Assembly (NCBI GenBank): GCA_041946735.1
Contig: JBHGAY010000015.1
Coordinates: 1-64,000, forward strand
From: Candidatus Eiseniibacteriota bacterium
Lineage (GTDB): Bacteria; Eisenbacteria; RBG-16-71-46; CAIMUX01; VGJL01
Direction: 5' to 3'
Length of the DNA: 64,000 nucleotides
Shown here: positions 3,057-23,824 of the stretch, piece by piece
Layout of the letters: each line of letters begins with the position of its first letter
Position numbering within the stretch: position 1 is the first letter of the stretch
Notes under the pieces: model-generated
What the model saw: only the letters and a program-made list of their open reading frames with translations
Told to the model about the DNA's origin: nothing
Database searches by the model: none
Made by a program: the position numbers and the translations under genes

Positions 3057-4277
3057 ATGAGAGTCCTGTCGATCACGAATCAGAAGGGGGGCTGCGGAAA
3101 GACCACGACGGCGGTGCATCTTGCCGCCTGTCTCGCCGCCAAGGGTCATTCGACGCTCCTCGTCGACCTCGACCCGCAGGGACATGCGGGGCTGGCGCTC
3201 GGCATCGGCGGCGCGAAGCCGCTCGAGGCATCGACGTACGAGGTGCTGACGCGCCGGCAGCCACTCGAGGCGATCCTGCACGAGGTCTCGGAGCGGCTGG
3301 CGGTAGCTCCCTCCGACGTGCGGCTCAGCGCAGTCGAGCAGGAACTGTCGGGAGTCGAGGGGCGCGAGTACCGACTCTCCGAAGCGCTCGCCTCTCTCGA
3401 GCAGAATCGCTTTCCGTTTGTCGTGATCGACACGCCTCCATCGATCGGGCTTCTGACCTTCAACGCGCTGATCGCCTCGCCGGAGGTGCTCGTTCCGATC
3501 GATGGCAGCATCTTTTCGCTGCAGGGGCTGGACCGCCTTCGCGAGACGATCGCGATCGTCGACCGGCACGTCGGCCGCGCGACGACGGTGCGCGCGCTCG
3601 CTACGATCTATGACCGGCGCACGCGACTCGCCCGCGAGGTCCTCGAGGAGATTCGTACCCGGTTCGGAGACTGGGCGCTCCACACGGTCATCCATGAGAC
3701 GGTGAAGCTCCGGGAGGCGGCGAGCCAGGGGAAGTCGATCCTGGAGATCTGTCCCTCTTCGATCGCGGCGGAGGATCACCATTCGCTCGCCGCCGAGCTG
3801 CTCCAAGCCGCGACGCGCCGCGGGACGCGGACCGAGGCGGTATCCCCCGCCTTCTCGCTGCACGGCGGCGCTCCGGTCACACCAGCCGCCGCACTCGCGC
3901 CGAAGGTCGCGGCCGTTCCGGCTGAGACGCCCACTCCAAGCGGGCAGATCGCCCCGCGCGCGCCGATCGCCGCAACCGCGCCGATCGCCGCAGCCTCCTC
4001 CATTCGCGCCGCGCGCGCCGGCGGCACTCGCTTCGTCTATCCGGACGGCACCGCGGAGGCCGTCGCTGTCGCGGGAAGCTGGAACGGGTGGGAACCGCAG
4101 CCGTGCAAGAAGGTCGGCGACCGCTGGGAGAAGACGATCCTGCTCTCTCCGGGCGTCTATGAATACCGTTTCGTCGTCGACGGCCACTGGACGCCCGATC
4201 CCTCCAACGAGCGCCGGGCGGAGAGCCCGTATGGCGGGCACAACTCCGTCGTGGAGATCGCAGGCCACGGGCGATAG
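3057..4277 (+). CDS. ParA/Soj family ATPase fused to a C-terminal AMPK-beta-like glycogen-binding (CBM48) domain
   Basis: NQKGGCGKTT, LVDLDPQG, VIDTPP; Ala/Pro linker; AVAGSWNGW...GVYEYRFVVDGHWTPDP...GGHNSV; SD GGAGG. Confidence 0.88.
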   Translation: MRVLSITNQKGGCGKTTTAVHLAACLAAKGHSTLLVDLDPQGHAGLALGIGGAKPLEASTYEVLTRRQPLEAILHEVSERLAVAPSDVRLSAVEQELSGVEGREYRLSEALASLEQNRFPFVVIDTPPSIGLLTFNALIASPEVLVPIDGSIFSLQGLDRLRETIAIVDRHVGRATTVRALATIYDRRTRLAREVLEEIRTRFGDWALHTVIHETVKLREAASQGKSILEICPSSIAAEDHHSLAAELLQAATRRGTRTEAVSPAFSLHGGAPVTPAAALAPKVAAVPAETPTPSGQIAPRAPIAATAPIAAASSIRAARAGGTRFVYPDGTAEAVAVAGSWNGWEPQPCKKVGDRWEKTILLSPGVYEYRFVVDGHWTPDPSNERRAESPYGGHNSVVEIAGHGR

Positions 4278-5322
4278 CCGGGCGAGCGATTGGTCCACGC
4301 CGCGGCCGGAACGCCACCCCGGACGCGGGCTGGCGGATCTCTCGCATCTGTTCCTCTCCCGTCCGGCCTCCGCTACCGCGGGGACGAACGAGGAGGCCGC
4401 GCCCGGCGACCACCCGGTGCCCGCCACCTCGGTGCCCGCCACCTCCGGGCCGTCCGGCCCCGCATCGCCGGCCGCTCCCGCCTCCACGCTCTTCGTCGCC
4501 TACGCGACCGACCCGCTCCTGGGCGCGCTCCTATGCCTGACCATCGCCCTGGAATCGTCGCGCCGGGGCAAAGCCGCGACGATCCATGATCCCGACCCCA
4601 ACCTGCCTTCCGTGCAGATCCTTGCCGGCGGCTCCGTCCGCCGTTCCCCGGGTGGGAAGGAGCAGTGGATCGAGAGCGGCGATGGGCTCCGCATCCCGCT
4701 CCTCGGTCGGTGGCCGGAGCGTCTCGATCCATACGATCCCGGCTTCCGCCATCCCGCCGAGCCGCGCCTCCGTGCCGTCGTCAACGCACCGGCGCGGATG
4801 CTCCTCGATCAGCCGTGCCAGCCGCCGATCAGCGACGGACAGGAGATCCTGCTGCCCCTTTCGGCACGGCTGGAAGACCTTTCCGCCGCCTACGCGATCT
4901 GCAAGCGGTTCGGCGGCAGCCCGCGGCCGCGGGTCGTCTGCTCGTGCGAGAAGGAGCCCGACTCCCAACCCGATCGCGGATGGGCGCTCTTTCGGGGTTT
5001 TGCCTCGATCACCGCGCGCCGGCTTGGAGCCGGGCCGAGCTTCTGCGGGTGCCTGCCACAGACCGGGGCGCCTCCGCTTCTCGTCGAGACGGCCCAGCGC
5101 TGGCTCGGCGCTTCTCAAGAAGAAGGAGACCCGCTGCGCCGCATCGTGGACGCGGTCGTCGGTCCCTCCCGGCACGGGCTCGCGCTCGCTGCGCCGGGCA
5201 GCGCCACGCACGCGAACTCGACCGCCGACGCGATCGCCATCGCCTACGGCTTGGAGGACGAAGAAGCGAGCGACCTGCGAGCGCTCCTCGCCCGCAGGCC
5301 GCCCGCGTCTGCTTCCGTCTAG
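4231..5322 (+). CDS. Hypothetical protein, possibly a degenerate MinD/FlhG-like fold, with an N-terminal GRGL motif
   Basis: Overlaps the parA end; GRGLADLSHLFLS, then LCLTIALESSRRGKAATIHDPDPNLPSV, which resembles the MinD/FlhG region after a lost P-loop; start uncertain. Confidence 0.6.
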   Translation: MAGTTPSWRSQATGDSRASDWSTPRPERHPGRGLADLSHLFLSRPASATAGTNEEAAPGDHPVPATSVPATSGPSGPASPAAPASTLFVAYATDPLLGALLCLTIALESSRRGKAATIHDPDPNLPSVQILAGGSVRRSPGGKEQWIESGDGLRIPLLGRWPERLDPYDPGFRHPAEPRLRAVVNAPARMLLDQPCQPPISDGQEILLPLSARLEDLSAAYAICKRFGGSPRPRVVCSCEKEPDSQPDRGWALFRGFASITARRLGAGPSFCGCLPQTGAPPLLVETAQRWLGASQEEGDPLRRIVDAVVGPSRHGLALAAPGSATHANSTADAIAIAYGLEDEEASDLRALLARRPPASASV

Positions 5323-5373
5323 GGCTCTGTCTCCGGCTCCGTCTCCGGATAGCTCCGGCGTCCGCCTCCCGGG

Positions 5374-6354
5374 CTAATCCTCCCGGCGAATCAGCAGCAT
5401 CGTGAGGTCGTCGCTGTGCGTCCCTCCCTGGAGGAACCGATGCAGGTCGTGCAGGACGGCGGACGCCGCCTTCGAAGGGGGCAGGGAGCGAACCTCGCGG
5501 AGCATCTCCTCGAGCCGCTGCGTTCCATACTCCTCGGAGCTGCCGTCCCTCGCCTCGGACAGTCCGTCCGTATAGAGGAAGAGCATGTCGCCCGGCTCGA
5601 TCCTATCCTCGGTCACGCCGTACGGCTCGGTTCCGAACATGCCGACCGGGAAGCCCGTCGCGTCGAACGTGCGGATTCGGTCCCGTCCGATCAGGACCGG
5701 TGGGCAGTGGCCGGCGTTGCAGATCCGGATCTTCCCCTGCCGGGTCAGCTCTCCGCACACCAGCGTCGCGTAGTGCGTCGCGATGTGGTTCTCGCGCAGC
5801 AGCCGGTCGGACCGCTCGACCAGCTTCTCGATACCGAGGCCTGTCGCAGCGAGGCTGCGGAAGGCCGCGTGCAGGTGCGTCATCAGGAGCGACGCCGCCA
5901 CCCCCTTGCCCGACACGTCGCCGATCAGGAAGAGAAGCGTCTCCTCCCCGCGCGGGAGCAGGTCGCACGTGTCTCCGCTGACCGGGCCCGCCGCCTCGTA
6001 GCGGAAGTGCGTCGTGTAGCCCGCATGGCTGAGATCCTGCCTGGGCAGGAGGCCGAGCTGCAGGCGCGCGGCGAGATCGAGGTCCTTCTCGAGCGCGGTT
6101 TGCTGCTGCGGCGTCAAGTCGCAGAGGCAGTACTCGATCAGCGGATTGTGGAGCAGCAGCTCGTCCTCCACCTCGCCGTGACAGAGGCGGCACACGCCGA
6201 ACTCGCCTCCATCGAGGCGTGACAGGGCCCGGTCCACCTGCTGGAGCAGCTGGGAGAGATCGACGGCGTCGGGGAGCGCCTCGATCGCCCGCTCCAAGCG
6301 CACGCGGCGGTCGACGAGTTGCTCACGAACGGCTGCTTGCACGGCAGGGTTCAT
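5374..6354 (-). CDS. SpoIIE/RsbU-type PP2C phosphatase with an N-terminal DksA/TraR-like Zn finger
   Basis: VSGDTCD, GDVSGKG, NAGHCPP, LYTDGLSE, DDLT; N-terminal ALSRLDGGEFGVCRLC...CLC; SD AAGGAGG. Confidence 0.9.
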   Translation of the reverse strand: MNPAVQAAVREQLVDRRVRLERAIEALPDAVDLSQLLQQVDRALSRLDGGEFGVCRLCHGEVEDELLLHNPLIEYCLCDLTPQQQTALEKDLDLAARLQLGLLPRQDLSHAGYTTHFRYEAAGPVSGDTCDLLPRGEETLLFLIGDVSGKGVAASLLMTHLHAAFRSLAATGLGIEKLVERSDRLLRENHIATHYATLVCGELTRQGKIRICNAGHCPPVLIGRDRIRTFDATGFPVGMFGTEPYGVTEDRIEPGDMLFLYTDGLSEARDGSSEEYGTQRLEEMLREVRSLPPSKAASAVLHDLHRFLQGGTHSDDLTMLLIRRED

Positions 6355-14397: not shown

Positions 14398-15270
14398 CTA
14401 CCGCTCCCCCGGCGGGGGCGAAAGGGGGGAGCTGGGTGCGACCACGGGGGTCGTAGCGCGATAAGTCAACCCGAGCAGCACGCTGGGCGTCCGGTCGGTG
14501 AAGCTCGCGTGACCCCCGCGCGCGACCGGCACGTCGATCGAGGAGATCGTAGAGAGCGCCGCGAGCCACACGCCGACACGGGAGAACGGGAAGACGCGGA
14601 TCGTCGCCGAGCCGACGAAACCGACGCCGCCGAAGTCGTAGCGCTCGCGCAGCCGCTCACCGCCGACAGTGTTCTCCGGGTGACCGAGGACGGGCCCGAC
14701 GCCGACGCCTCCCTGCACCTGGACACGTCCGATCGGCCATGCATCCGAACGCGGCCCCAACCCCTTGCGCACCGCGACGCCGAGCGCGAGGTAGTTCAGT
14801 CCGTGCGAGATGGAGAAGCTCTGGACCACCGCCTGCACCGGTGTCGGCTCGTCGACGATCGTGCCGCTGATCGTGCCGTCGATCCGCTTCGTCTCCTCGG
14901 TTCGGGCATAGAGCTTCGCGTGGACGAAGTCGAGCGTGAAGCCGACCCACGGCGCCGCGCGCAGGAAGTAGGAAGCGCCGAGGAAATAGAACGGCGGATC
15001 GTCGAGCGAGCGATCGTCGAAGGCGAGATCGCGGATCGTGAAGTCGTTGTCCAACTCCCGCTGCTCGATCGAGAGGTTTGACGACTGCGGGAACGACTCG
15101 CCGATCCCGGCGTCGAGGAGGATCTCGCCGATCGCGTGGGCGGGCGGGGGCGGGCCGAGCGCCAGAACGAGCATAGCGGCGGTCGCGAGAGCCCAGCAGC
15201 GAGCCCGGCGCGACCGCGCCCGCTCCGTCCTCCGGTCGGGACTGCTACGATCCAGGCATGTCCGGTGCAT
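14398..15270 (-). CDS. Hypothetical outer-membrane beta-barrel protein
   Basis: Signal peptide ending AHA; alternating amphipathic strands (FSISHGLNY, VLLGLTYR); start may lie downstream. Confidence 0.65.
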   Translation of the reverse strand: MHRTCLDRSSPDRRTERARSRRARCWALATAAMLVLALGPPPPAHAIGEILLDAGIGESFPQSSNLSIEQRELDNDFTIRDLAFDDRSLDDPPFYFLGASYFLRAAPWVGFTLDFVHAKLYARTEETKRIDGTISGTIVDEPTPVQAVVQSFSISHGLNYLALGVAVRKGLGPRSDAWPIGRVQVQGGVGVGPVLGHPENTVGGERLRERYDFGGVGFVGSATIRVFPFSRVGVWLAALSTISSIDVPVARGGHASFTDRTPSVLLGLTYRATTPVVAPSSPLSPPPGER

Positions 15271-15551
15271 CGAGCGACTCCTCCGCGCCGCACGCGTCGG
15301 ATCCGCCGGCGCCTGCGCGCGATCCGGCCGAGGAGCGACGGATCGAGGAGATCCAGCGCGCCTCCGACCGCGTCGTCGCCTTGATCCTATTCTCGGATCT
15401 CCCGCTCATCGACATCCGGTTGGCCGCGGCCGACGTCCGCCGCCTCTGCCAGCGCCTCTTCCCTGATCGGGCGTATCTATACGAATGGATCTACGCCCGC
15501 CGCTTCCGACGGCTGTGGCAGCAATGGCGGGGCGAGGAAGAGTGGAAGTGA
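15258..15551 (+). CDS. Small helical hypothetical protein
   Basis: Globular-looking composition (LFPDRAYLYEWIYARRFRRLWQQWR); fills the gap between two minus-strand genes. Confidence 0.6.
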   Translation: MSGASSDSSAPHASDPPAPARDPAEERRIEEIQRASDRVVALILFSDLPLIDIRLAAADVRRLCQRLFPDRAYLYEWIYARRFRRLWQQWRGEEEWK

Positions 15552-15672
15552 TCGAAGCGGTTGCCGGCTTTCCGTGCATGACAAATCGGTTGACCCAGCA
15601 TGCACCCGCACATCCGCGCCATCCCATCTGAGAACGATGGAATGGCGCAACGAAGACGGAAGAAAATCGGTT

Positions 15673-16611
15673 CTAGCGCTGAGCGGAACCGGCCCCCGCC
15701 GACGATCCGCCCGTCCGCCCGCTGGACTCCCTGCGCACCGGAACGAGCGCCGGAGATGTCTTCTCGTCGAGACCGAGCACCGTGACGAGGTCCGAGTTCC
15801 CCGGGATCACATACTTCACGTTCTGCGCGAGGGTCGCCTGCAGAACGTCGAGTTGCTTCGAGAGCGCCGCGCGATCGTGGAAGAACTGCTCGGTCGCGGT
15901 CGAGATCATCTCGATCGCCTTTGCCTCCGCAGTGGCGCGCGTCAGCCGCGCCTGCGCGTCTCCCTCGGCCTTCAGGATCTCGGCCTGCTTGAACCCCTCG
16001 GCGCGCAGGATCTCGCTCTGCCGCACCCCTTCCGACTCGAGGATCAGGGCTCGTTTGTCGCGCTCCGCCTTCATCTGGCGGCTCATCGCCTCGGTGATGT
16101 CGACGGGCGGATCGATCTTCTGCACCTCGACGCGCGTCACTTTCACACCCCAGGTGTTCGTAGCCTCGTCGAGGACGGCTCGCAGGTTCGTGTTGATCAT
16201 GTCGCGCGCGATCAAGGTTTCGTCGAGCGTCTTGTCGCCGATCAGATTCCTCAAGTTGGTCTGGGCGAGGGTGGTGGCGGCGAGGCCGAAATGCTGCACC
16301 TCGAAGACGGCGCGCACCGGATCGACGACGCGGTAGTAGATCACCGCGTCGACGGTGACCGTCACGTTGTCGCGCGTGATGACCTTCTGCGGTTCGACAT
16401 TGATCACCTGCTCGCGCATGTCGACCTTGATCAGCTCGTCGACCAGCGGCGTCAGGAACGTGAGCCCCGAGCTCGCCGTCGCGTGATACTTGCCGAGGCG
16501 CAGGACGAGCCCCTTCTCGTACTGCGAGACGATCCGCGCGCTCCTGGCGAGGATGATCAGGAGCACGAAGGCGAAGAAACCGACGATGATCAGGGTCGCG
16601 TTATGGCTCAT
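15673..16611 (-). CDS. SPFH/band 7 (QmcA-like) protein
   Basis: N-terminal TM; VITRDNVTVTVDAVIYY, WGVKVTRVE, MSRQMKAERDKRA; start overlaps the nfeD stop. Confidence 0.93.
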   Translation of the reverse strand: MSHNATLIIVGFFAFVLLIILARSARIVSQYEKGLVLRLGKYHATASSGLTFLTPLVDELIKVDMREQVINVEPQKVITRDNVTVTVDAVIYYRVVDPVRAVFEVQHFGLAATTLAQTNLRNLIGDKTLDETLIARDMINTNLRAVLDEATNTWGVKVTRVEVQKIDPPVDITEAMSRQMKAERDKRALILESEGVRQSEILRAEGFKQAEILKAEGDAQARLTRATAEAKAIEMISTATEQFFHDRAALSKQLDVLQATLAQNVKYVIPGNSDLVTVLGLDEKTSPALVPVRRESSGRTGGSSAGAGSAQR

Positions 16612-17078
16612 CACGCACCTCCGCCGGACGATCCCGGCTGCTCGGGGACGACGTAGAGGGTCACACCGTCGATTCGCGTCACGCGCGCGCGCGATCCGGG
16701 CTCGATCGGACCTCGGACCCCCGCGTCGAGGCAGGCCCTCCATTCCTCCCCCTCGGTCCGGATCCGACCGGGCCGATCGGAACTGATCGTCTCGACGACC
16801 TGCACGGTCTTGCCGAGGATCGCGTCGGTGTTCGTCGCCAGCCCGCCGCGGCCCCAGCGATTCCGGATGCGGCGGCGGCCGGCGAAGACGTAGAGGAGCG
16901 AGAGGATTCCGCCTGCGGCGACGCCGATCGCCGCCGACTTCGTGAGCAGGCCGAGGACTCCGCCGAGGAGGATCGCCGACCCGATCAAGAGGAAGTCGAA
17001 GCCGGTCACCGCGCCGAGGACGACCTCGATCAGGATCAGGACCGCTCCTGCGATGACGAGCAGCCAGTTCACCATCAT
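16611..17078 (-). CDS. NfeD family membrane protein
   Basis: TM helices plus OB domain (GRIRTEGEEWRA...VTRIDGVTLYV); classic partner of SPFH genes. Confidence 0.88.
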   Translation of the reverse strand: MMVNWLLVIAGAVLILIEVVLGAVTGFDFLLIGSAILLGGVLGLLTKSAAIGVAAGGILSLLYVFAGRRRIRNRWGRGGLATNTDAILGKTVQVVETISSDRPGRIRTEGEEWRACLDAGVRGPIEPGSRARVTRIDGVTLYVVPEQPGSSGGGA

Positions 17079-17261
17079 CGTCCCTCCTGTACAGGGGGTG
17101 GAAACTGGCGAAAACGCTACGGCCAGCCGGGAGGAGGGTCAAGCGAACTCGGCCACAATCGTTCGTGGCGAAGCGGCCTCGGGACTGGCAGAATCGGCGG
17201 GCAAGACGGCGAGAGGGCGCGCCTCGCGTGCGATTGCCGGGCGCATCCGAGGGAGGCTCCG

Positions 17262-17879
17262 ATGTCCCATCCGTTTCTGATCGGCCGCCGGGTCCAGCTT
17301 CGCGCGATCGAGGAGGAGGACGCGCCGGCGTACGTCGAGTGGCTCAGCTCCCCGGACATGCGCGAGTTCCTGCTGATCCGCTTTCCGCAGACGACGCAGG
17401 GGGAGCGGGAGTGGATCGCGTCGATGCGCGGGAAGGAGAAGCCGCCGGCGAACCTGGTCTTCTCGATCGAACGCAAGAGCGACGGGCGTCACATCGGCTG
17501 CTGCGCCCTGCACCAGATCGACTGGGTCCACCGGCGGGCGATGACCGGCAGCTTCCTCGGGCCGCCGGCGTTGCGGGGCAAGGGGCTGGGGACCGAGGCG
17601 AAGAACCTGCTGCTCGACTACGCCTTCGGGGAGCTGGGCTTGCAGTCGATCTGGGCGATCGCCTTCGACCGGAATGCCGCCTCGCGCCGGGCGCTGGAGA
17701 AGCAGGGATACCGGGCGAGCGGCGTGTTCCGGAAGGCGTTCCTGGTCGGCGGCGAGTGGAGCGACGCCGTCTACTTCGACCTCCTGCGCGAGGAGTGGGC
17801 GGCGATGCGCGGGGCGAGGAAGGGAGCGGGAGGCGGCCAGGCGGCGCGAAGCGGCAGGAGGTCGGCGGGCCGGGCCTAG
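17262..17879 (+). CDS. GNAT N-acetyltransferase, RimJ/RimL family
   Basis: LIGRRVQLRAI, RGKGLGTEAK, AFDRNAASRRALEKQGY. Confidence 0.9.
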   Translation: MSHPFLIGRRVQLRAIEEEDAPAYVEWLSSPDMREFLLIRFPQTTQGEREWIASMRGKEKPPANLVFSIERKSDGRHIGCCALHQIDWVHRRAMTGSFLGPPALRGKGLGTEAKNLLLDYAFGELGLQSIWAIAFDRNAASRRALEKQGYRASGVFRKAFLVGGEWSDAVYFDLLREEWAAMRGARKGAGGGQAARSGRRSAGRA

Positions 17880-17946
17880 CTGGCCGAGCCCTGGACGGCG
17901 AGCGCTCGGCGGCGCGGATGCGGCGACCGCCCGACGGCGACGGAGG

Positions 17947-18368
17947 CGGCGACCGCCCGGCTGTCCGCGCGTTCGAAGCGACCGGCTGCGGGTGCCGGAG
18001 GCGTTGTCCCCGCGTTCTAAGTGACCGGCCGCGGTGCTGGACGCGTTGTGCCCGCGTTTGAAGCGGCCGGCAGCGGCGCCAGACGTGCTGCTCCCGCCTT
18101 CGACGTCCCCGGCACCGCTGGGCGAGCCATGATGCGGGCGCATCCTCCGCCATGCAGCGGTGCCGCACCCACCTGCTCTCCCGCACGATCAGGCGCGCAG
18201 CGCCGCCGGACGCATCGTCCCCGCGCATCGGTCCTCACGCAGCGCCAGCGGCCCCAGGATCCCGCCGGAAGTCCCGCTCAGCAGCACTGCGGGACGTATT
18301 GTCCCCGCTTTCGGTGCGCCATGCAGCGCTGCGGGACCTATTGTTCCCGTTTTCGGTGGTGCCAGCAG
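17947..18368 (+). repeat. Left arm of a degenerate 42-bp tandem array (10 units)
   Basis: Unit starts 17947, 17989, 18032, 18074, 18116, 18158, 18201, 18243, 18285, 18327; approximate consensus cgctgcgggacgca ttgtccc cgcgtttcggtgcgccatgcag; junction gcag|cg. Confidence 0.85.
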
Positions 18369-18371
18369 GAC

Positions 18372-18709
18372 GAGTTGACACGAAAGAAAACGTAGAAAAC
18401 CTGGCCTGCGCCACCGAATGTCCCATCGCAGGCACGGAAAAGGTCACCCGCGGCGCTGCGCGCCACGTAATACGCAGGAACAGGGTGTCCCGCAGCGCCG
18501 GCGGAAGTGGTGAACACTCGGAACAGCTCGTCGCGCAGCGCCGGCGACCCCCCGAGACGCCGGAACAGCCCGTCCGCGCCTGCTGCAGGACGCATCGAAA
18601 CTGGGGACAATGCGTCCAGCAGTCCTGCAGGCACCATTGATACGCGAGGATCGTGTTACAGACAGCGCGGCATGACGCACCGAAAGCGGGGACGATAGGT
18701 CCTGCAGTG
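18372..18709 (-). repeat. Right, inverted arm of the same 42-bp array (about 8 units)
   Basis: Reverse-complement units start at 18709, 18667, 18624, 18582, 18540, 18497, 18455, 18413; 18663-18709 matches 18285-18331 at 42 of 47 positions. Confidence 0.85.
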
Positions 18710-19024
18710 GCGTCAAACGGGCTGTACCGACGCGCATCGTTTACAGCCCTGACAAGGGTCGGCTACACCGGCGTGTCGCGACGGGATGTCGGCCGGCCAG
18801 TATCTCCCTGTCGATCTCTCGACCGTTGCTCGCTCTCCTCCTCCCCACCCTTACGACATGACCGTTTATGAACGACGAACGATACCGGTCTGTCTCGCAA
18901 GGATTGCCAACGAGTTACGGAAGTCGAAGAAGCACGGAGATCGCTTCTCGCAACCAATGGCCCACCTCGTGCGTAGGTAGGGTGGCAAGGGCGAAACCGG
19001 CCTCTTGCCGGAAAGGAGCAGGTC

Positions 19025-19768
19025 ATGAGACTGCCACTCATCAGCTGGGGCGCCGAAGGCATCCGTCGCGCGGGGATCTTCATCGTGGCGATGCTGAAGG
19101 CGTGGCTGGGCATCCCGGTCGAGATCGTGAACGCCTTCGTCGCCCGGCAGGACGGGCTGGTCGCCCGCATCAACGAGTGCGGCCAGGCTGCCGACCGGAC
19201 GGTGGAGGCCAAGGCGAACTGCAACTACCGGAAGGGGGAGCTGATCCGGTGCGTGCGGCGGCTCGCGAGCGAGCTGAAGCTGGCGTGCGGCAACAACGCC
19301 CGCGCACCCCTCTATCGGTTCTTCTTCCCGAAGGGGCTGCCTGCCTTCACACGGTCGACGATCGAGTCGGTCGTCGTGCAGGTGCAGGAGCTGCACACGA
19401 AGATCGCCCTCGATGGCTGCCCGCCCTCGGTGGCGCCGTTCGCGGAGCCCCTCGCGTCCCTGCGAAGCGATCTCGAGCAGGCGGTCCAGGCACTGAAGGG
19501 CTGCCAGGAGGACGAGGCCCAGGCGAAGATCGCGTACGAGAACGAGAAGCTGCTGTGGATCGAGGCGTACGCCCAGCTCTACCACCGACTGCGCGCGCAC
19601 TTCGCCACCCAGCCGGAGCTGGCCGAGACCTTCTTCCCGGCGCCACGAATCCGCCGGCGGTCCTCGGAGGAGGCGCTGCTGGAGGGAGCGACTGCAAGCG
19701 ATGCCGGAAACGGGAACGGGAGCGAAAGCACATCCGTGGCGGCGGCGCAACCGCCCGCGGCGGCGTAG
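19025..19768 (+). CDS. Orphan alpha-helical protein with a two-fold internal repeat
   Basis: SD GAAAGGAG; both halves are long amphipathic helices ending in FFP (LYRFFFPKG, LAETFFPAP); no catalytic motif recognised. Confidence 0.85.
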   Translation: MRLPLISWGAEGIRRAGIFIVAMLKAWLGIPVEIVNAFVARQDGLVARINECGQAADRTVEAKANCNYRKGELIRCVRRLASELKLACGNNARAPLYRFFFPKGLPAFTRSTIESVVVQVQELHTKIALDGCPPSVAPFAEPLASLRSDLEQAVQALKGCQEDEAQAKIAYENEKLLWIEAYAQLYHRLRAHFATQPELAETFFPAPRIRRRSSEEALLEGATASDAGNGNGSESTSVAAAQPPAAA

Positions 19769-19926
19769 CGGCCGCCCGGGGACCAAGGCCGCATCGATAC
19801 GAAAGGAGGGCCGCGTAGTACCCCGGCAGGAGCCGTAGCCGGGGAGTTTCGAGGAGTGACAGATGCGGACGACATCGGGGCTGCGGTCCGTCACCGGATC
19901 GCAGCCCCTGTTCCTTGGGGCGGCCG
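19769..19926 (+). ncRNA. Candidate structured RNA element (multi-branched, about 158 nt)
   Basis: Nested stems 19769-77/19918-26, 19784-88/19913-17, 19789-95/19862-68, 19800-04/19847-51, 19821-27/19838-44, 19877-90/19895-908. Confidence 0.4.
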
Positions 19927-19936
19927 TTGCAGCTGC

Positions 19937-20953
19937 TCACCGTCGCATCACGAGAATCCGGGTCGCGCGCGGGGATCCCTCGACGCGCGCGAAGTAGACG
20001 CCGGGCGAGACGGGCCGGCCGGCCCGGTCCTCCGTGTCCCAGAGGACCGCGGAGCTTTCGATCCTCCCCAAATCGCGAACGAGTCGCCCGGCGGCGTCGA
20101 ACACCGCCATCTCCCGGCCGGTCGGAACAATCCCGTGGAAGCGGATCTCGGCCGCGCGCGAGACCGGGTTCGGGCTCACGCTTGTCTCGAACAGGTTCGA
20201 GCCGGGCAGATTCGCGGAGACGGCGGCCGGCTCGAGGAAGAAGAGGTCGAAGTGGAAGCCGCCGGATGCCGGGTTCTCCTCGTCCTCGAACGCCTGCCCG
20301 TAGCCGCTCGTGGAGAGCGACAGCCGGAAGTCCTCCACACCGAGAGGGATCGACTGATTCAGCTCGATCGTCTCCTCGCGGATCGAATGATAAAGGACTA
20401 CACCGCTCACACTCCCGATCAGGCTGAAGTTCGCGACACCGTTGCCCGACGCGGAGAGAGTCCCGACGATCTGGAGCTGCATCGGCGAGTCGACGAGGAA
20501 CTCGGTGTCGAGCTGCGTGGCGCCGAGCGCCTCCGCGAAGTCGGCGGTGGTCCCGATCGTCGCCTCCGCCTGGAAGTCGGCGTCGACGGTGATCGAAACC
20601 TCGCCGATCTCGGAAACCTGCTGCGCCCACGAGTGCGCGCGCGCATCCTCGACGACCGCCTCGCTCTCCACGCGTTCGTCGAAGGAGCCCGGGTCGGCGC
20701 TCTGCGTCTGGTCGTCGTGGAAGACGGTCTCCCCGTCGAGCGGATCGACGAGTGCGAAGCTCATAACCTGGCGGGATTGGGAGATGGGCTGCACGGCAGC
20801 CTCCGCTACAGGCGGATCGGCGATACCGAGCGGCAAGAGGAGGGCGCCGAAGATGGCCAGCGGAGACAGCGAGGAGCGGGGCGGGCAGGACGAGGTGGGC
20901 GAGGACGCTGCCGACGGGCTCAAAGGCGACGGCCCTGTCGTTGAAGTCGACAT
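19937..20953 (-). CDS. Secreted beta-rich protein with a C-terminal FlgD-Ig-like domain
   Basis: Signal-like LAIFGALLLPLG..AEA; C-terminal SPNPV...VFDAAGRLVRDL...WDTEDRAGRPVSPGVYFARV; start uncertain. Confidence 0.8.
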   Translation of the reverse strand: MSTSTTGPSPLSPSAASSPTSSCPPRSSLSPLAIFGALLLPLGIADPPVAEAAVQPISQSRQVMSFALVDPLDGETVFHDDQTQSADPGSFDERVESEAVVEDARAHSWAQQVSEIGEVSITVDADFQAEATIGTTADFAEALGATQLDTEFLVDSPMQLQIVGTLSASGNGVANFSLIGSVSGVVLYHSIREETIELNQSIPLGVEDFRLSLSTSGYGQAFEDEENPASGGFHFDLFFLEPAAVSANLPGSNLFETSVSPNPVSRAAEIRFHGIVPTGREMAVFDAAGRLVRDLGRIESSAVLWDTEDRAGRPVSPGVYFARVEGSPRATRILVMRR

Positions 20954-21149
20954 GGGGACCTCCCGAGGTTCACGGACGGACACGTCTGGCTAAAGAGGGC
21001 CGCGGCCGTGCCGGGCAGTGGAATTCCCCGGCTGCCCCGGTGGTCTGTGACATCGAGTCGAACGGATCGTTCCCCTGATACGCGATACGGGCGGATCGCA
21101 CCGCGCGAACGGAAGCTCGGCAGGGGAAAGAGCCGGCCGACCGGGCAGC

Positions 21150-22832
21150 CTACTTCGCCGCGGAGTCGATGACCAGATAGATCGTGGCGAGCTGCGAGAG
21201 CACTCCGAGCGTCGTGAGGGCTGACTTCCATAGGTCGCGCTGCGGCTTCCGGGGAACCCATATCGTGTCGCCCGGGCCGAGGCGGTCCACCTTGCCCTTC
21301 TTGATCCACTGGCCGGTCAGGGCGCGCACGACGGTGACCTTCCCTTTGTCGGCCTGGTCCGTGTAGCCGCCGGAGCGTTCCACGTAGCGGTCGATCTCCT
21401 CGCCCGCCAGGAACGGCACGTTGCCGGGGCGGCGCACCTCGCCCGCGACCGTGACGAACGGCTGGATCTTTGGAACGACCACGAGGTCGCCGGGCCGTAC
21501 GTAGACGTCCTGCGATCTGTCCCCCTCGAGAAAGAGAGCGGGGAAGTCCACCGAGAGGACCGGCCGGCTCGTCCGCAGCCTCATGGAGTAGTACTGGAAC
21601 TCCTCCGGGGTCATCTCGCCGGTCGGAAGCTGGCGCAGGCGATCGTACTCCGGGTCGGGCACCGCCTCCGGAATGTCTCGCGTGACGTACGCCTCCCCGA
21701 GCGCGGCGGTCGGCGTGAACCCTCCGACGTCCGCGATGAGCTGTGTGAGCAGCAGGGAGTCGGTGGGGAGCGCGTGCATCCCCGGGTTTCGCACCTCGCC
21801 GATCACGCGGACGGTCCGGCCTTCGCTGCGCTCGACACGCGGCCGCACGAAGAGAAGATCGCCCGGGCCGACGAGCATCGCGCGGTCGGCCGGATTGCGC
21901 AGGTCGAGGAGTCGCCGCGGGCGCGGCGCATCGCGCGACCCGCCGGACTGCAGATACGCGGAATCGGGCATCGCCTCCTCGTCGAGGCCATGCGCGAGGG
22001 CGAGGAGCGTTCCCACCGAGTCGCCCGGGACCACCTCGACCGGGCCGGGCTTGCGGACCGCGCCGCTCACCACCGCGGTCGCGACGTACGGCGGGACCAC
22101 GATACGGTCCCCCGCTTCGACGGTGGGATTGTGGATGAGCGCGCCGGTCGCCTCGAAGAGGGCGAGATCGACGGGGAGCACGTTGCCGTCCTGGCGAAGA
22201 AGGCGAATCGCGCGCTGCGAGCTGCGGCGAGGTTGCGCCGAGCCGGCGAGGCTCGTGAGAGGCGCGGCCGCCGCCTGCTCCAGCTCTCGCTGGCCGATCT
22301 CGAACGGCTCCGCCCGAGTGACGAGCTCCGAGGCGCGGTCGTTCGGCGTGGCTTGCTGCAGTCCCGGCTTTCGCACCTCCCCGAGGACGTAAGCGGTGAT
22401 CGTCCGCAGCTCGAGCAGGTGCAGATCGACCTCTCCGGAGCGGTAGTAGCGGGACATCGTGTCGCGGAGGAGATCGTTCGCTTGCTCGATCGTAAGGCCT
22501 GCAACGTGCACGGACGGCCCCTCCGGAAGGATCAGGTATCCGTCGGGCGTGACGCGCAGCGTTCGTTCGACGGGCGGGGTCGCGCGAACGCGGAGGCTCA
22601 ACAGGTCTCCGGGCCCGAGACGGTAGGCCGAGCGGTCGACGGGTCCTTCCAGCGGTCGCGGGAGCGGAGTCGTCCCGAGCGTACCCGGCTGGCTGTCCCC
22701 CGCAGTCCCGGGCGGCGCCGCCGGCGTTTGCGCTCCTGCGTTGCCGGACAAAGTGCATGCGAGGAGGGACGCAAGGAGCAGGAGGATCGTGCAGGCGCCT
22801 GCGCGCCACGGCCGCTTCTGGAACATCCTCAT
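21150..22832 (-). CDS. Polysaccharide export protein with SLBB repeats (Wza/KpsD-like)
   Basis: YRLGPGDLL, VTPDGYLILP, repeated V.GEVR.PG motifs; ATGA overlap with the upstream GT2. Confidence 0.9.
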   Translation of the reverse strand: MRMFQKRPWRAGACTILLLLASLLACTLSGNAGAQTPAAPPGTAGDSQPGTLGTTPLPRPLEGPVDRSAYRLGPGDLLSLRVRATPPVERTLRVTPDGYLILPEGPSVHVAGLTIEQANDLLRDTMSRYYRSGEVDLHLLELRTITAYVLGEVRKPGLQQATPNDRASELVTRAEPFEIGQRELEQAAAAPLTSLAGSAQPRRSSQRAIRLLRQDGNVLPVDLALFEATGALIHNPTVEAGDRIVVPPYVATAVVSGAVRKPGPVEVVPGDSVGTLLALAHGLDEEAMPDSAYLQSGGSRDAPRPRRLLDLRNPADRAMLVGPGDLLFVRPRVERSEGRTVRVIGEVRNPGMHALPTDSLLLTQLIADVGGFTPTAALGEAYVTRDIPEAVPDPEYDRLRQLPTGEMTPEEFQYYSMRLRTSRPVLSVDFPALFLEGDRSQDVYVRPGDLVVVPKIQPFVTVAGEVRRPGNVPFLAGEEIDRYVERSGGYTDQADKGKVTVVRALTGQWIKKGKVDRLGPGDTIWVPRKPQRDLWKSALTTLGVLSQLATIYLVIDSAAK

Positions 22833-23824
22833 CCCTCCCGGCTCTCCCGGCTCGATCCGGCGGCGGCTTTGCCTGCCTGCGGCGCGGTCGCGCCCCCTGA
22901 TCCCGTCTTTGGCCCCCGCGCAGCTTCCCACACTTTCAGGACTTCGAGAAACCCATAGATCCCGAGCATCGAGCTGGTTGCGATGCCGATCCTGCCCTCG
23001 CGCCAGCCGCTCAGGCGCAGGTAGGACCAGAGGAAGAGGCGGACTCCCGCCCAGATGGCGATGAGGCCGGTCCGGGAGCGCGCCGCCTTGAGGCCCATGG
23101 CGGAGGTGCCGGGCGAGGTGCCGTCCAGGATGCGCTGCGCCTCGCGCGTCGTGTAACGGTTCGTCTTGCGGATGAAGTCGCGGAGGGTGGGATACGGCTC
23201 GTGGAGGATCGGCGCGGCAAGGCGTCCCACCGTCCCGTCGACCTCGAGCGGCTCGTGGATGGCGTGCAAACGGTAGCGACCCCTGCCGGAGCGGAAGAGG
23301 CGGATCAGCCGGCGATGCCGGCCCCAGTAGCCGTAGCTCGGCCAGGTCCCGAGCACCGAGGTCCAGAACGGGATCGCGAAGGCCGCGTCGCTCGGCTGCG
23401 ACGCGACCGCCGCCCGCATCTCGGCGGCAAGCTCCGGCGAGACGCGCTCGTCCGCATCGACCTGCAGGATCCAGCCCGCGGGGATCTGCGGGAACGCCCA
23501 GTTGAGATTGCCGTGCACCGGGTCGATCTCGGGCGGCAGCACGTGCGGAACGATCCACGAGGTGAAGCCCGCGGCGATCTCGACGGTCCGGTCGGTCGAG
23601 CCGTTGTCGACCAGGAGGATCCGGTCGGCCCAGAGGAGGGAGCGGAGGCATCGCTCGATGTTCGCTTCTTCGTTCAGGGCGAGGACGACGGCGGTGATCG
23701 CGTGGGGATCGGTGGCCGGGCCGCCCGGCAGCGGGAGCGAATCCGACGCCGGTGCCCGCGACGGTGCGGGTGCGGACGGCATGCCGCCGGGAACGTTCAG
23801 CGGAGCGGAAGCGCCCGCGCCCAT
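22829..23824 (-). CDS. GT2 glycosyltransferase
   Basis: VVLALNEEANIERCL, VDNGSTDRT, VDADE; start uncertain (23782 or 23824). Confidence 0.9.
   Translation of the reverse strand: MGAGASAPLNVPGGMPSAPAPSRAPASDSLPLPGGPATDPHAITAVVLALNEEANIERCLRSLLWADRILLVDNGSTDRTVEIAAGFTSWIVPHVLPPEIDPVHGNLNWAFPQIPAGWILQVDADERVSPELAAEMRAAVASQPSDAAFAIPFWTSVLGTWPSYGYWGRHRRLIRLFRSGRGRYRLHAIHEPLEVDGTVGRLAAPILHEPYPTLRDFIRKTNRYTTREAQRILDGTSPGTSAMGLKAARSRTGLIAIWAGVRLFLWSYLRLSGWREGRIGIATSSMLGIYGFLEVLKVWEAARGPKTGSGGATAPQAGKAAAGSSRESREG

Follow-up and report, generated by a model that had tools for sequence, protein, structure and literature searches.

A Tandem 42-bp Repeat Array Linked to a Multi-Copy Family of Helical Proteins in One Order of an Uncultured Bacterial Phylum

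Introduction

Does an array of decayed 42-bp repeats that precedes a single gene for an unnamed helical protein belong to that gene, and if so, what does it do? This question is raised by a block of about 2 kb (positions 17,947 to 19,926) in a stretch of 64,000 nucleotides from a Candidatus Eiseniibacteriota bacterium (assembly GCA_041946735.1, contig JBHGAY010000015.1, positions 1 to 64,000 of the forward strand), which is called the window here at its full length. The block contains two opposed arms of 42-bp units, a leader, a gene for a 247-aa protein and a structured 3′ element, and the initial annotation of the window regarded it as a self-contained three-part system. The comparison of related loci described below gives good support to the conclusion that array and gene form a conserved, self-duplicating module, of which genomes in one order of an uncultured phylum contain many copies. 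The array itself is tentatively read as a DNA-level, polar platform upstream of the gene that repeats every four helical turns and is probably bound by the encoded dimer; the probability of this reading is put at roughly one in three.

Plasmid replication control, DNA segregation and RNA-based toxin–antitoxin defence are among the processes built on repeat arrays with a cognate gene. The unusual property of the present arrays is that unit length and strand polarity are kept, while the sequence of the unit is free to change. They accompany genes of a large helical-protein family that has yet to be named (930 cluster representatives), and in an uncultured soil lineage this layout is repeated 8 to 13 or more times per genome. 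A limited literature search on 42-bp tandem or intergenic bacterial repeats and on Eisenbacteria repeats found no earlier description of this family or of its linkage to arrays.

Linkage of the Arrays to the Gene Family

Of 206 genomes of the phylum, 11 contain the protein family, and all of these belong to one order (two of five genomes in taxonomic family f1, six of 13 in f2, two of 15 in f3 and none of 172 in all others). This protein family is always multi-copy where the contigs allow, with up to 13 scored matches per genome, and these counts are lower bounds, 13 candidates having been scored in each genome. The source genome gave eight family matches by tblastn and profile search, one of which (on contig C27) is a fragment. 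For the analysis of linkage, 46 family loci from 11 genomes were used, 45 of them with at least 360 bp of upstream sequence, and the strongest lag among 20-100 was recorded within 1.5 kb of flank. The dominant upstream period was 42, 43 or 83-86 bp in 37 of the 45 loci, which are distributed over 11 genomes and three taxonomic families (G000, 4/6; G001, 1/1; G003, 1/1; G007, 2/3; G009, 6/8; G015, 3/3; G017, 4/6; G019, 1/1; G022, 2/2; G023, 4/4; G027, 9/10). Such a period dominated none of the 46 downstream flanks (Fisher p 5e-18, for loci that are related and so not independent). With these counts, 37/45 upstream against 0/46 downstream, the impression in the initial annotation that similar helical genes are accompanied by periodic flanking DNA is correct for this order.

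A lenient run of Tandem Repeats Finder (TRF) delimited arrays at 33 of the 45 loci, with a period of 42 in 25, of 43 in six and of 83 or 84 in two, and with 2.2-18.8 copies of the unit (median 7.5). Arrays are kept across paralogues that are only 20-30% identical to one another. The paralogues on contigs C11, C15 and C21 carry upstream arrays of 42 or 43 bp, each with its own unit sequence; the arrays at the end of C21 and the start of C19 are 94% identical over 77 bp, and these contigs probably join. At 27 of 42 loci there is no callable open reading frame (ORF) from which the orientation of the gene upstream of the array could be taken.

The extent of the module is indicated by a pair of copies in G015, whose homology starts exactly at the first array unit and stops about 130 nt past the stop codon. 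The duplicating unit therefore consists of array, leader, gene and 3′ untranslated region (UTR), and in this sense the block is self-contained, as had been proposed. In general terms, the module comprises a tandem array of 42-43-bp units, a leader some hundreds of bases long, the gene, and a conserved 3′ UTR of about 125 nt that includes a terminator.

Assembled sequence often ends at an array: contigs of G000 that break inside 42-43-bp arrays are C21 (end), C19 (start), C4 (end; an array of the C11 unit type) and C43 (start), and family genes in G027 and G023 often begin within about 100 bp of a contig start.

The Two-Armed Array of the Window

The array of the window is composed of a left (distal) arm of about 10 decayed direct units on the plus strand (17948-18365), a less GC-rich centre (18366-18419) and a right (proximal) arm of about eight units in the opposite orientation, on the minus strand (18420-18745). 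In the left arm (17940-18365), autocorrelation peaks at lag 42 with 0.495, against a mean of 0.305 (sd 0.035). The corresponding value in the right arm (18420-18740) is 0.419, with 0.428 at lag 85, and two coding controls have no comparable peak at lag 42. A repeat search and TRF both returned 42-bp families, and under lenient settings TRF described the left arm as 10.0 copies of period 42 with 59% match. Unit matches found with nhmmer lie on the plus strand in the left arm and on the minus strand in the right arm, and inverted matches of 47 nt between the arms (pairs I2 and I3) are 83-89% complementary. The right arm, with about 326 bp, has room for about eight units; together with about 10 in the left arm, these agree with the estimate of about 18 units in two opposed arms made in the initial annotation, which autocorrelation, TRF and inverted matches jointly uphold. 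The GC skew of the left arm is -0.07.

The inverted layout is not an assembly artefact, because two other public runs also gave contigs that span the centre (X2, 18176-18464; X3, 18327-18477); raw reads of run X9 left the stretch uncovered. A second copy of the entire two-armed array, including the conserved centre, lies on contig C16 of G000 (14941-15800; locus L012, about 4940-5800). It is collinear and 76% identical over about 765 bp, with homology stopping near 18746. Its neighbours are genes for a nucleotidyltransferase, which the copy precedes, and for a large membrane protein; no member of the family lies nearby. The inverted units that match best do not face each other as mirror partners across the centre, and decay is greatest in the inner units of the right arm. 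There is good support for the view that the window array is an old one, with 59% unit identity, and that a rearrangement has given it its two opposed arms. The opposed arms are a local rearrangement, common only to the window copy and its C16 duplicate, and not a general feature, and the emphasis that the initial annotation put on them is not upheld; other family loci carry simple, one-directional direct arrays. No ORF supported by GC content at third codon positions (GC3) spans the window array, a BLAST search of the array against 40 relatives returned only chance-level matches of 28-30 nt, and two scans of genome contigs for related loci found no relative.

Arrays Outside the Gene Family

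Across G000 (4.89 Mb), 25 regions have a period of 42, 43 or 84-86; nine are inside genes and 16 are non-coding, and only some of these 16 adjoin family genes. Some arrays lie between divergent genes. Profile searches beside the stand-alone arrays of G000 found no remnants of family genes, only weak N-terminal matches (E 0.003-0.04). One stand-alone array of about 1 kb, on C5 (115291-116298), lies between convergent genes and has a 42/84-bp period with up to 79% lag identity; its units weakly resemble the unit type of the window.

Co-occurrence with the gene family was examined in a small sample, namely 1.2 Mb of G004, 0.16 Mb of G006 and 0.8 Mb of G009. No stretch with a period of 42, 43 or 84-86 was detected in the 1.2 Mb of G004, a member of the same taxonomic family that is devoid of the protein family, or in the 0.16 Mb of G006. 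The Poisson chance of finding no array in 1.2 Mb is 0.02 at the array density of G000 and 0.09 if stand-alone arrays alone are counted. The 0.8 Mb of G009 contained one apparently stand-alone array, with the unit type of the gene-linked arrays of that genome. It looks like a decayed module, because it is followed by a stretch of about 15 residues that resembles, by eye, the N-terminus of the family gene.

Sequence Properties of the Arrays

The unit sequences are unrelated between most loci, and their length is held at 42-43 bp or at an alternating pair of 83-86 bp. On the gene-sense strand, C exceeds G in 27 of 33 arrays (mean skew -0.098), as compared with a skew of +0.009 in 568 ORF-free upstream regions of G000 and of -0.018 at third codon positions of the family genes. 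In paired modules whose proteins are 73-88% identical, the array zone is 0.65-0.77 identical, third codon positions 0.75-0.88 and the leader 0.76-0.83. One pair of paralogues with 73% amino-acid identity has kept the array in only one member.

Regular arrays display two invariant boxes about 21-22 bp apart, with variable spacers between them. Significant palindromes (p<=0.05) occur in five of 33 units, where about 1.7 would be expected. Alternating purine-pyrimidine runs, which are prone to form Z-DNA, occupy 0.064 of array positions and 0.062 of positions in dinucleotide shuffles. Consensus RNA folds calculated per unit are weak and include essentially no compensatory pairs. Terminator-like hairpins were detected in seven of 33 leaders on the sense strand and in one of 33 on the antisense strand, by a strict hairpin-plus-T-run scan whose sensitivity is low, because it called terminators after only five of 46 genes. 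The G015 pair has no common sequence upstream of its arrays, and therefore no shared promoter there.

Two familiar kinds of repeat were rejected. Coding repeats lack GC3 support, and a coding role is excluded because periods of 43 and 83 occur. In a clustered regularly interspaced short palindromic repeat (CRISPR) array the units would not abut without spacers as they do here, and a Pfam search of the family protein and its two flanking genes gave nothing Cas-like, ORFs farther out being outside that scan.

The Encoded Protein and its Family

The gene of the block (19025-19768, plus strand) is monocistronic, lies between unrelated chromosomal genes and encodes 247 aa. It had been annotated as a helical gene with a strong Shine-Dalgarno sequence, and each part of this description is borne out: the ribosome-binding site AAAGGAG (19012-19018, plus strand) is located 6 nt before the ATG, GC content by codon position (0.68/0.49/0.90) has the pattern of real genes in the genome, and the AlphaFold2 (AF2) model is all-helical (pLDDT 92, pTM 0.79), with a core of two 56-residue helices (residues 32-87 and 137-192). 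The term orphan, which had also been applied, does not hold, in view of the paralogues in the same genome and of 930 cluster representatives at E<=1e-3 (381 at E<=1e-10) recovered with a profile built from five paralogues. In the protein atlas these clusters are all named 'hypothetical protein' and are commonest in Myxococcota, Bacteroidota and Acidobacteriota. The length of the module protein across the family is about 230-260 aa.

Domain searches with 53 sampled members found no consistent Pfam family (eight unrelated single-member matches at E<=0.01), no match in NCBIfam or PHROGs, and two stray matches, none consistent, in the PADLOC defence library. A PDB profile search returned only designed or coiled-coil proteins (E>=2e-4). 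Among fold matches, the helical bimodular (HBM) sensor domains of McpZ, McpS and TorS, a type in which two long helices carry two stacked four-helix bundles, cover most of the protein (VIA Z 9.3-10.3, about 186 residues), but a VIA Z of about 10 is lower than the value of about 13 that is quoted as noise for helical proteins; McpS (2yfb/2yfa) gave TMq 0.50-0.51 and Foldseek E 0.057-0.15.

Modelling supports a symmetric homodimer. The dimer model reached an ipSAE of 0.66, against 0.00 for the best control, with 100% run-to-run contact agreement and a partner pLDDT of 88; the score mark applied is reached by 20 of 30 solved homodimers and one of 23 monomers. The predicted interface comprises residues 15-27 and 56-71, including some conserved positions.

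Leader and 3′ Untranslated Region

The leader (18746-19024, plus strand, 279 nt) had been described as carrying hairpins, a feature that its predicted folding does not bear out, being equal to that of shuffled sequences (z 0.01); the terminator scan found no terminator in it. Two short motifs are common to paralogues: one at about 18844-18869, matched in the leaders of the C65 and C21 paralogues and, by eye, of C11, and one at about 18966-18977, matched in those of C65, C21 and C24. These motifs have no recognisable sigma-70-type promoter spacing. Inspection of leaders and units, by eye only, revealed no convincing conserved promoter of the sigma-70, sigma-54 or extracytoplasmic function (ECF) type, and no sigma-70-like site was found in 17500-20300 of the window, where the promoter types of the host phylum may differ. 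An Rfam search of 17000-21000 at E<=1 gave no match, and ARAGORN found no tRNA in the window.

The closest paralogue of the window gene is that on C65, with 60% amino-acid identity and identities of 0.74/0.74/0.64 at the three codon positions. Positions -60 to -1 before the two genes are 80% identical, and the first 125 nt past the stop codon are 0.81 identical, after which the next 175 nt are at background (0.45). The multi-stem element that follows the window gene (19769-19912, plus strand) is a conserved 3′ UTR ending in a terminator. Its predicted structure, part of the initial annotation, is confirmed by a fold z of -4.07, by a 14-bp terminator-like hairpin with a T-rich tail (19877-19908, plus strand) and by conservation relative to C65 beyond that of third codon positions (81% vs 64%). 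All 34 of 34 predicted pairs are kept in the window and C65, eight of them via one-sided changes and none via double changes. The window element is common only to the C65 paralogue, and the G015 copies have a different conserved 3′ UTR.

Possible Role of the Array

According to the favoured reading, the array would be a cis-acting, orientation-dependent DNA element in the upstream control region of its own gene. A repeat of about four helical turns (42/10.5) would put the binder of each unit on one face of the helix, and a cooperative nucleoprotein complex could then assemble upstream of the promoter and set the expression of the gene. The most probable binder would be the dimeric protein of the module itself, each paralogue being matched to its own unit sequence, and stand-alone arrays might be relics or extra targets. 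A role at the level of DNA is favoured because no promoter is shared upstream of the arrays, because RNA structure is weak and because the invariant boxes are about 21 bp apart. The linkage at 37 of 45 loci, the co-occurrence of arrays and family in the genomes sampled, the duplication of the module as a unit, the fixed strand polarity, the palindromes in five of 33 units and the homodimer model also count in favour of this reading.

Several properties of the protein and the arrays weigh against such a platform. Family searches found no helix-turn-helix (HTH), ribbon-helix-helix (RHH) or ParB signature in the protein, and no known nucleic-acid-binding fold was recognised in family and fold searches, the matches of the latter being generic helical bundles (best Foldseek E 0.028); a DNA-binding surface of an unrecognised type may nonetheless exist. 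The protein core is near neutral (mean net charge +2.5, pI 8.0), and its conserved residues are mostly aromatic. Unit identity within arrays is 52-90% (median 66%), with many arrays at only 52-66%, and the arrays end 127-1053 bp before the gene (median 336), at no fixed distance. Palindromes are not enriched in 28 of 33 units, and the arrays have no internal 10.5-bp compositional periodicity (largest z 2.2, for purines; none for A/T). Arrays that diverge at least as fast as third codon positions are a poor fit to sequence-specific operators, and the excess of C over G would be easier to reconcile with a role as single strand (RNA) than as duplex. Some arrays sit between convergent genes and have nothing downstream to regulate. 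Finally, a metagenome scan yielded four loci, two of which had a full gene and enough upstream flank; these two belong to a distant subfamily and carry no upstream array, and therefore the protein needs no array in general. The initial annotation had named two findings that would speak against a joint system: homologues without arrays, which are seen in these two distant members and not at 37 of 45 loci of this order, and an array independent of the gene, which is seen in part, in the C16 copy and other intergenic arrays.

That the arrays are only by-products is a possible though doubtful alternative. They would be fast-evolving minisatellites kept periodic by unequal crossing-over, with no sequence-specific function and at most a role as spacer DNA, and their unit length would have been inherited with the module from an ancestral 42-bp array, by descent and not by a physical ruler. 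Units unrelated between loci, a period that drifts slightly (42, 43, 41.5 x 2), divergence at about the rate of third codon positions or faster, and the single array kept by the pair of 73% identity all suit this explanation. So do identities of 52-90% within arrays, as expected from cycles of expansion and decay, the persistence of stand-alone copies or relics, the frequent breaking of contigs at arrays, and units of which only five in 33 are palindromic, with neither a purine-pyrimidine excess nor a 10.5-bp periodicity. Yet, given the deletion bias of bacteria, a satellite could hardly have been retained upstream in 37 of 45 loci, across 20-30%-identical paralogues and three families; the array-specific strand bias needs a directional force, and 1.2 Mb of the relative that lacks the gene family contain no arrays. 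The same strand bias (more C than G on the sense strand, in 27 of 33 arrays) would be accounted for by a system resembling type III toxin–antitoxin (TA) loci, in which the array is transcribed in the gene direction as a C-rich repeat RNA that the protein binds or processes. This RNA could be an antidote, sponge or scaffold, the leader terminator could set the ratio of RNA to protein, and the geometry of RNA and protein could fix the unit length while the unit sequence co-evolves with each paralogue. The layout agrees with the locus criteria of Blower et al. (2012; PMC3401426), in so far as they are set out there, and the same paper expects further families; leader terminator hairpins (7/33 sense vs 1/33 antisense), a separate unit sequence of constant length at each locus and a patchy, multi-copy distribution as in TA modules point in the same direction. 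Nevertheless, such a system is unlikely. An all-helical bundle is unlike the RNases of the ToxN/AbiQ type, with only two stray PADLOC matches among 53 members; the copy number (median 7.5, up to 18.8) exceeds the 1.9-5.6 given for known families (PMC3401426); and with units often 52-66% alike, most could not be equivalent antidotes. In addition, the consensus fold per unit is weak, no conserved promoter precedes the array in the G015 pair, the window leader has no terminator, the proximal arm of the window array points the wrong way, and both arrays without the gene and genes without arrays exist.

Two further explanations concern the array as a transcribed or folded tract. If the array were a transcriptional insulator, a C-rich tract that is not translated and has little structure would load Rho onto transcripts running on from the upstream gene, or halt RNA polymerase there in some other way, and would so shield the tightly controlled helical-protein gene; no specific sequence would be required. 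Such an insulator would agree with the sense-strand excess of C in 27 of 33 arrays, the weak secondary structure, the placement of the array between upstream gene and leader, and the arrays found between convergent genes. This explanation is quite improbable: the skew is modest (mean -0.098), the skew of stand-alone arrays does not consistently follow the direction of incoming transcription, divergent genes flank some of the arrays, and it would be left unexplained why only this family needs insulators and why the tract is periodic. A functional fold-back of the opposed arms into a long hairpin or cruciform, or an array that encodes a protein of 14-residue repeats, is extremely improbable. The 47-nt inverted matches with 83-89% complementarity and the identical two-arm layout of the C16 copy would suit a fold-back, which is contradicted by the lack of mirror pairing between the best-matching units, by the greater decay of the inner right-arm units and by the one-directional arrays of other family loci. 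For the repeat protein, the divisibility of 42 by 3 and open frames through parts of the arrays are opposed by the periods of 43 and 83 bp at other family loci and other G000 arrays, by the lack of a GC3-supported ORF across the window array, and by unit variants that, judged by eye, have no bias to synonymous changes.

The DNA-level platform and an RNA-level role would both be compatible with a broader proposal, that the modules represent a new class of chromosomal repeat-plus-protein systems in which unit length and not sequence is conserved; as it stands, this proposal is speculative and seems unlikely. In one version, dimers that each cover about four helical turns would polymerise on the array of their own module into a paralogue-specific nucleoprotein filament. 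In the other, the array would give unit-length RNAs that pair with the protein, constituting a fourth, non-RNase family of type III-like TA or defence modules. If true, it would amount to a new mechanism present in 8 to 13 or more copies per genome of an uncultured phylum. More generally, if the protein acts on the arrays, the modules would form a new family of nucleoprotein or RNA-protein modules, and a widespread 'hypothetical protein' would gain a first clue to its function. Otherwise, the arrays would still be a plain example of a minisatellite that persists at one gene family, helpful in annotation and as an explanation of why contigs break in these metagenome assemblies.

Comparison with Known Systems

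The proposed logic of a repeat array plus a cognate binder is that of iterons, of F sopC with SopB and of the KfrA operator. Repetitive extragenic palindromic (REP) sequences, with the bacterial interspersed mosaic elements (BIMEs) built from them, and mycobacterial minisatellites of the interspersed repetitive unit (MIRU) type likewise form intergenic arrays whose units measure about 40 bp and which recur at several places in a genome, also between convergent genes. REPs are palindromic and alternate in orientation within BIMEs, whereas the present units are direct within each arm or array and 28 of 33 have no significant palindrome. To our knowledge, neither REPs nor MIRUs are tied to one protein family, in contrast to the present arrays, which are tied to one family at 37 of 45 loci.

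In unit length and copy number, the present arrays are almost identical to sopC of the F plasmid, a centromere described as 12 direct 43-bp repeats that each contain a 16-bp inverted repeat and are bound by SopB (PMC3177203). As there, the array adjoins the gene for its presumed binder, and a period of about four turns would set binders on one face. The units of sopC are near-identical and each contains the SopB palindrome, whereas palindromes occur in five of 33 units here and the median identity is 66%. SopB moreover has an HTH of the ParB family and an ATPase partner, SopA, neither of which was detected here, and the module is chromosomal with eight or more copies, unlike a plasmid partition locus.

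KfrA of plasmid RA3 is an alpha-helical, oligomerising autoregulator whose operator consists of five 9-bp direct repeats at its own promoter, and for which repeat number and orientation matter (PMC7783346). The resemblance lies in an all-alpha, self-associating protein (self-association being predicted here) that is encoded downstream of direct repeats. In the account given of KfrA in that source, an N-terminal HTH has been mapped and the 9-bp units overlap the promoter, whereas in the present modules family searches detected no HTH, each unit measures 42-43 bp, and 127-1053 bp separate the end of the array from the gene.

Type III TA loci (toxIN, cptIN and tenpIN) have units of 31-62 nt, proteins of 45-288 aa and arrays of 1.9-5.6 units, and array and gene may be up to 340 bp apart (Blower et al., 2012; PMC3401426). 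Judged by what is reported there, the present modules are similar in that a tandem array with locus-specific units lies upstream of a single gene, with the lengths of unit and protein within these ranges, and in their multi-copy, patchy and often chromosomal distribution. They differ from the known toxins, which are endoribonucleases of about 170 aa, in encoding a helical bundle, and from known arrays, whose units are near-identical, in having 2.2-18.8 often decayed units. A type III locus has its promoter just before the first repeat and a short palindromic terminator ahead of the gene, and its repeat RNA neutralises a protein that inhibits growth. The weak RNA structure, a terminator detected in only seven of 33 leaders by a scan of low sensitivity, and the absence of a conserved promoter upstream of the arrays are further differences. 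An endoribonuclease of the ToxN, CptN or TenpN type was rejected as the identity of the protein, with no match in PADLOC, Pfam, PDB sequence or fold searches.

Flanking Genes and Additional Observations

The block is flanked on the left by a gene for a GNAT acetyltransferase (17262-17879, plus strand; PF13302, E 2.3e-29), in agreement with the initial annotation. The identity that had been given to the convergent gene on the right (19937-20983, minus strand), that of a FlgD-Ig protein, rests on sub-threshold matches to FlgD_ig and Por_Secre_tail; its product gives weak matches to type-IX-style C-terminal tags. Farther downstream, the product of a long ORF (21150-23651, minus strand) resembles, by eye from its translation, a polysaccharide-export outer-membrane protein of the Wza type.

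Strong periodicity in G000 also occurs at 73-75 bp (31 scan windows) and at 99 bp (nine scan windows); three divides neither 73 nor 74, and the arrays with these lags may belong to a further non-coding class. In G009, locus L159 (C12:640001-660000) encodes, at 3769-5259 on the minus strand, an AAA+/Clp-like ATPase with a long, Lys/Ala-rich N-terminal tail resembling histone H1. The same locus has a 61-bp tandem repeat of 2.7 copies just past a secreted-protein gene (1279-1442), and a lag of 61 was strong in 11 scan windows within the 0.8 Mb sampled from that genome.

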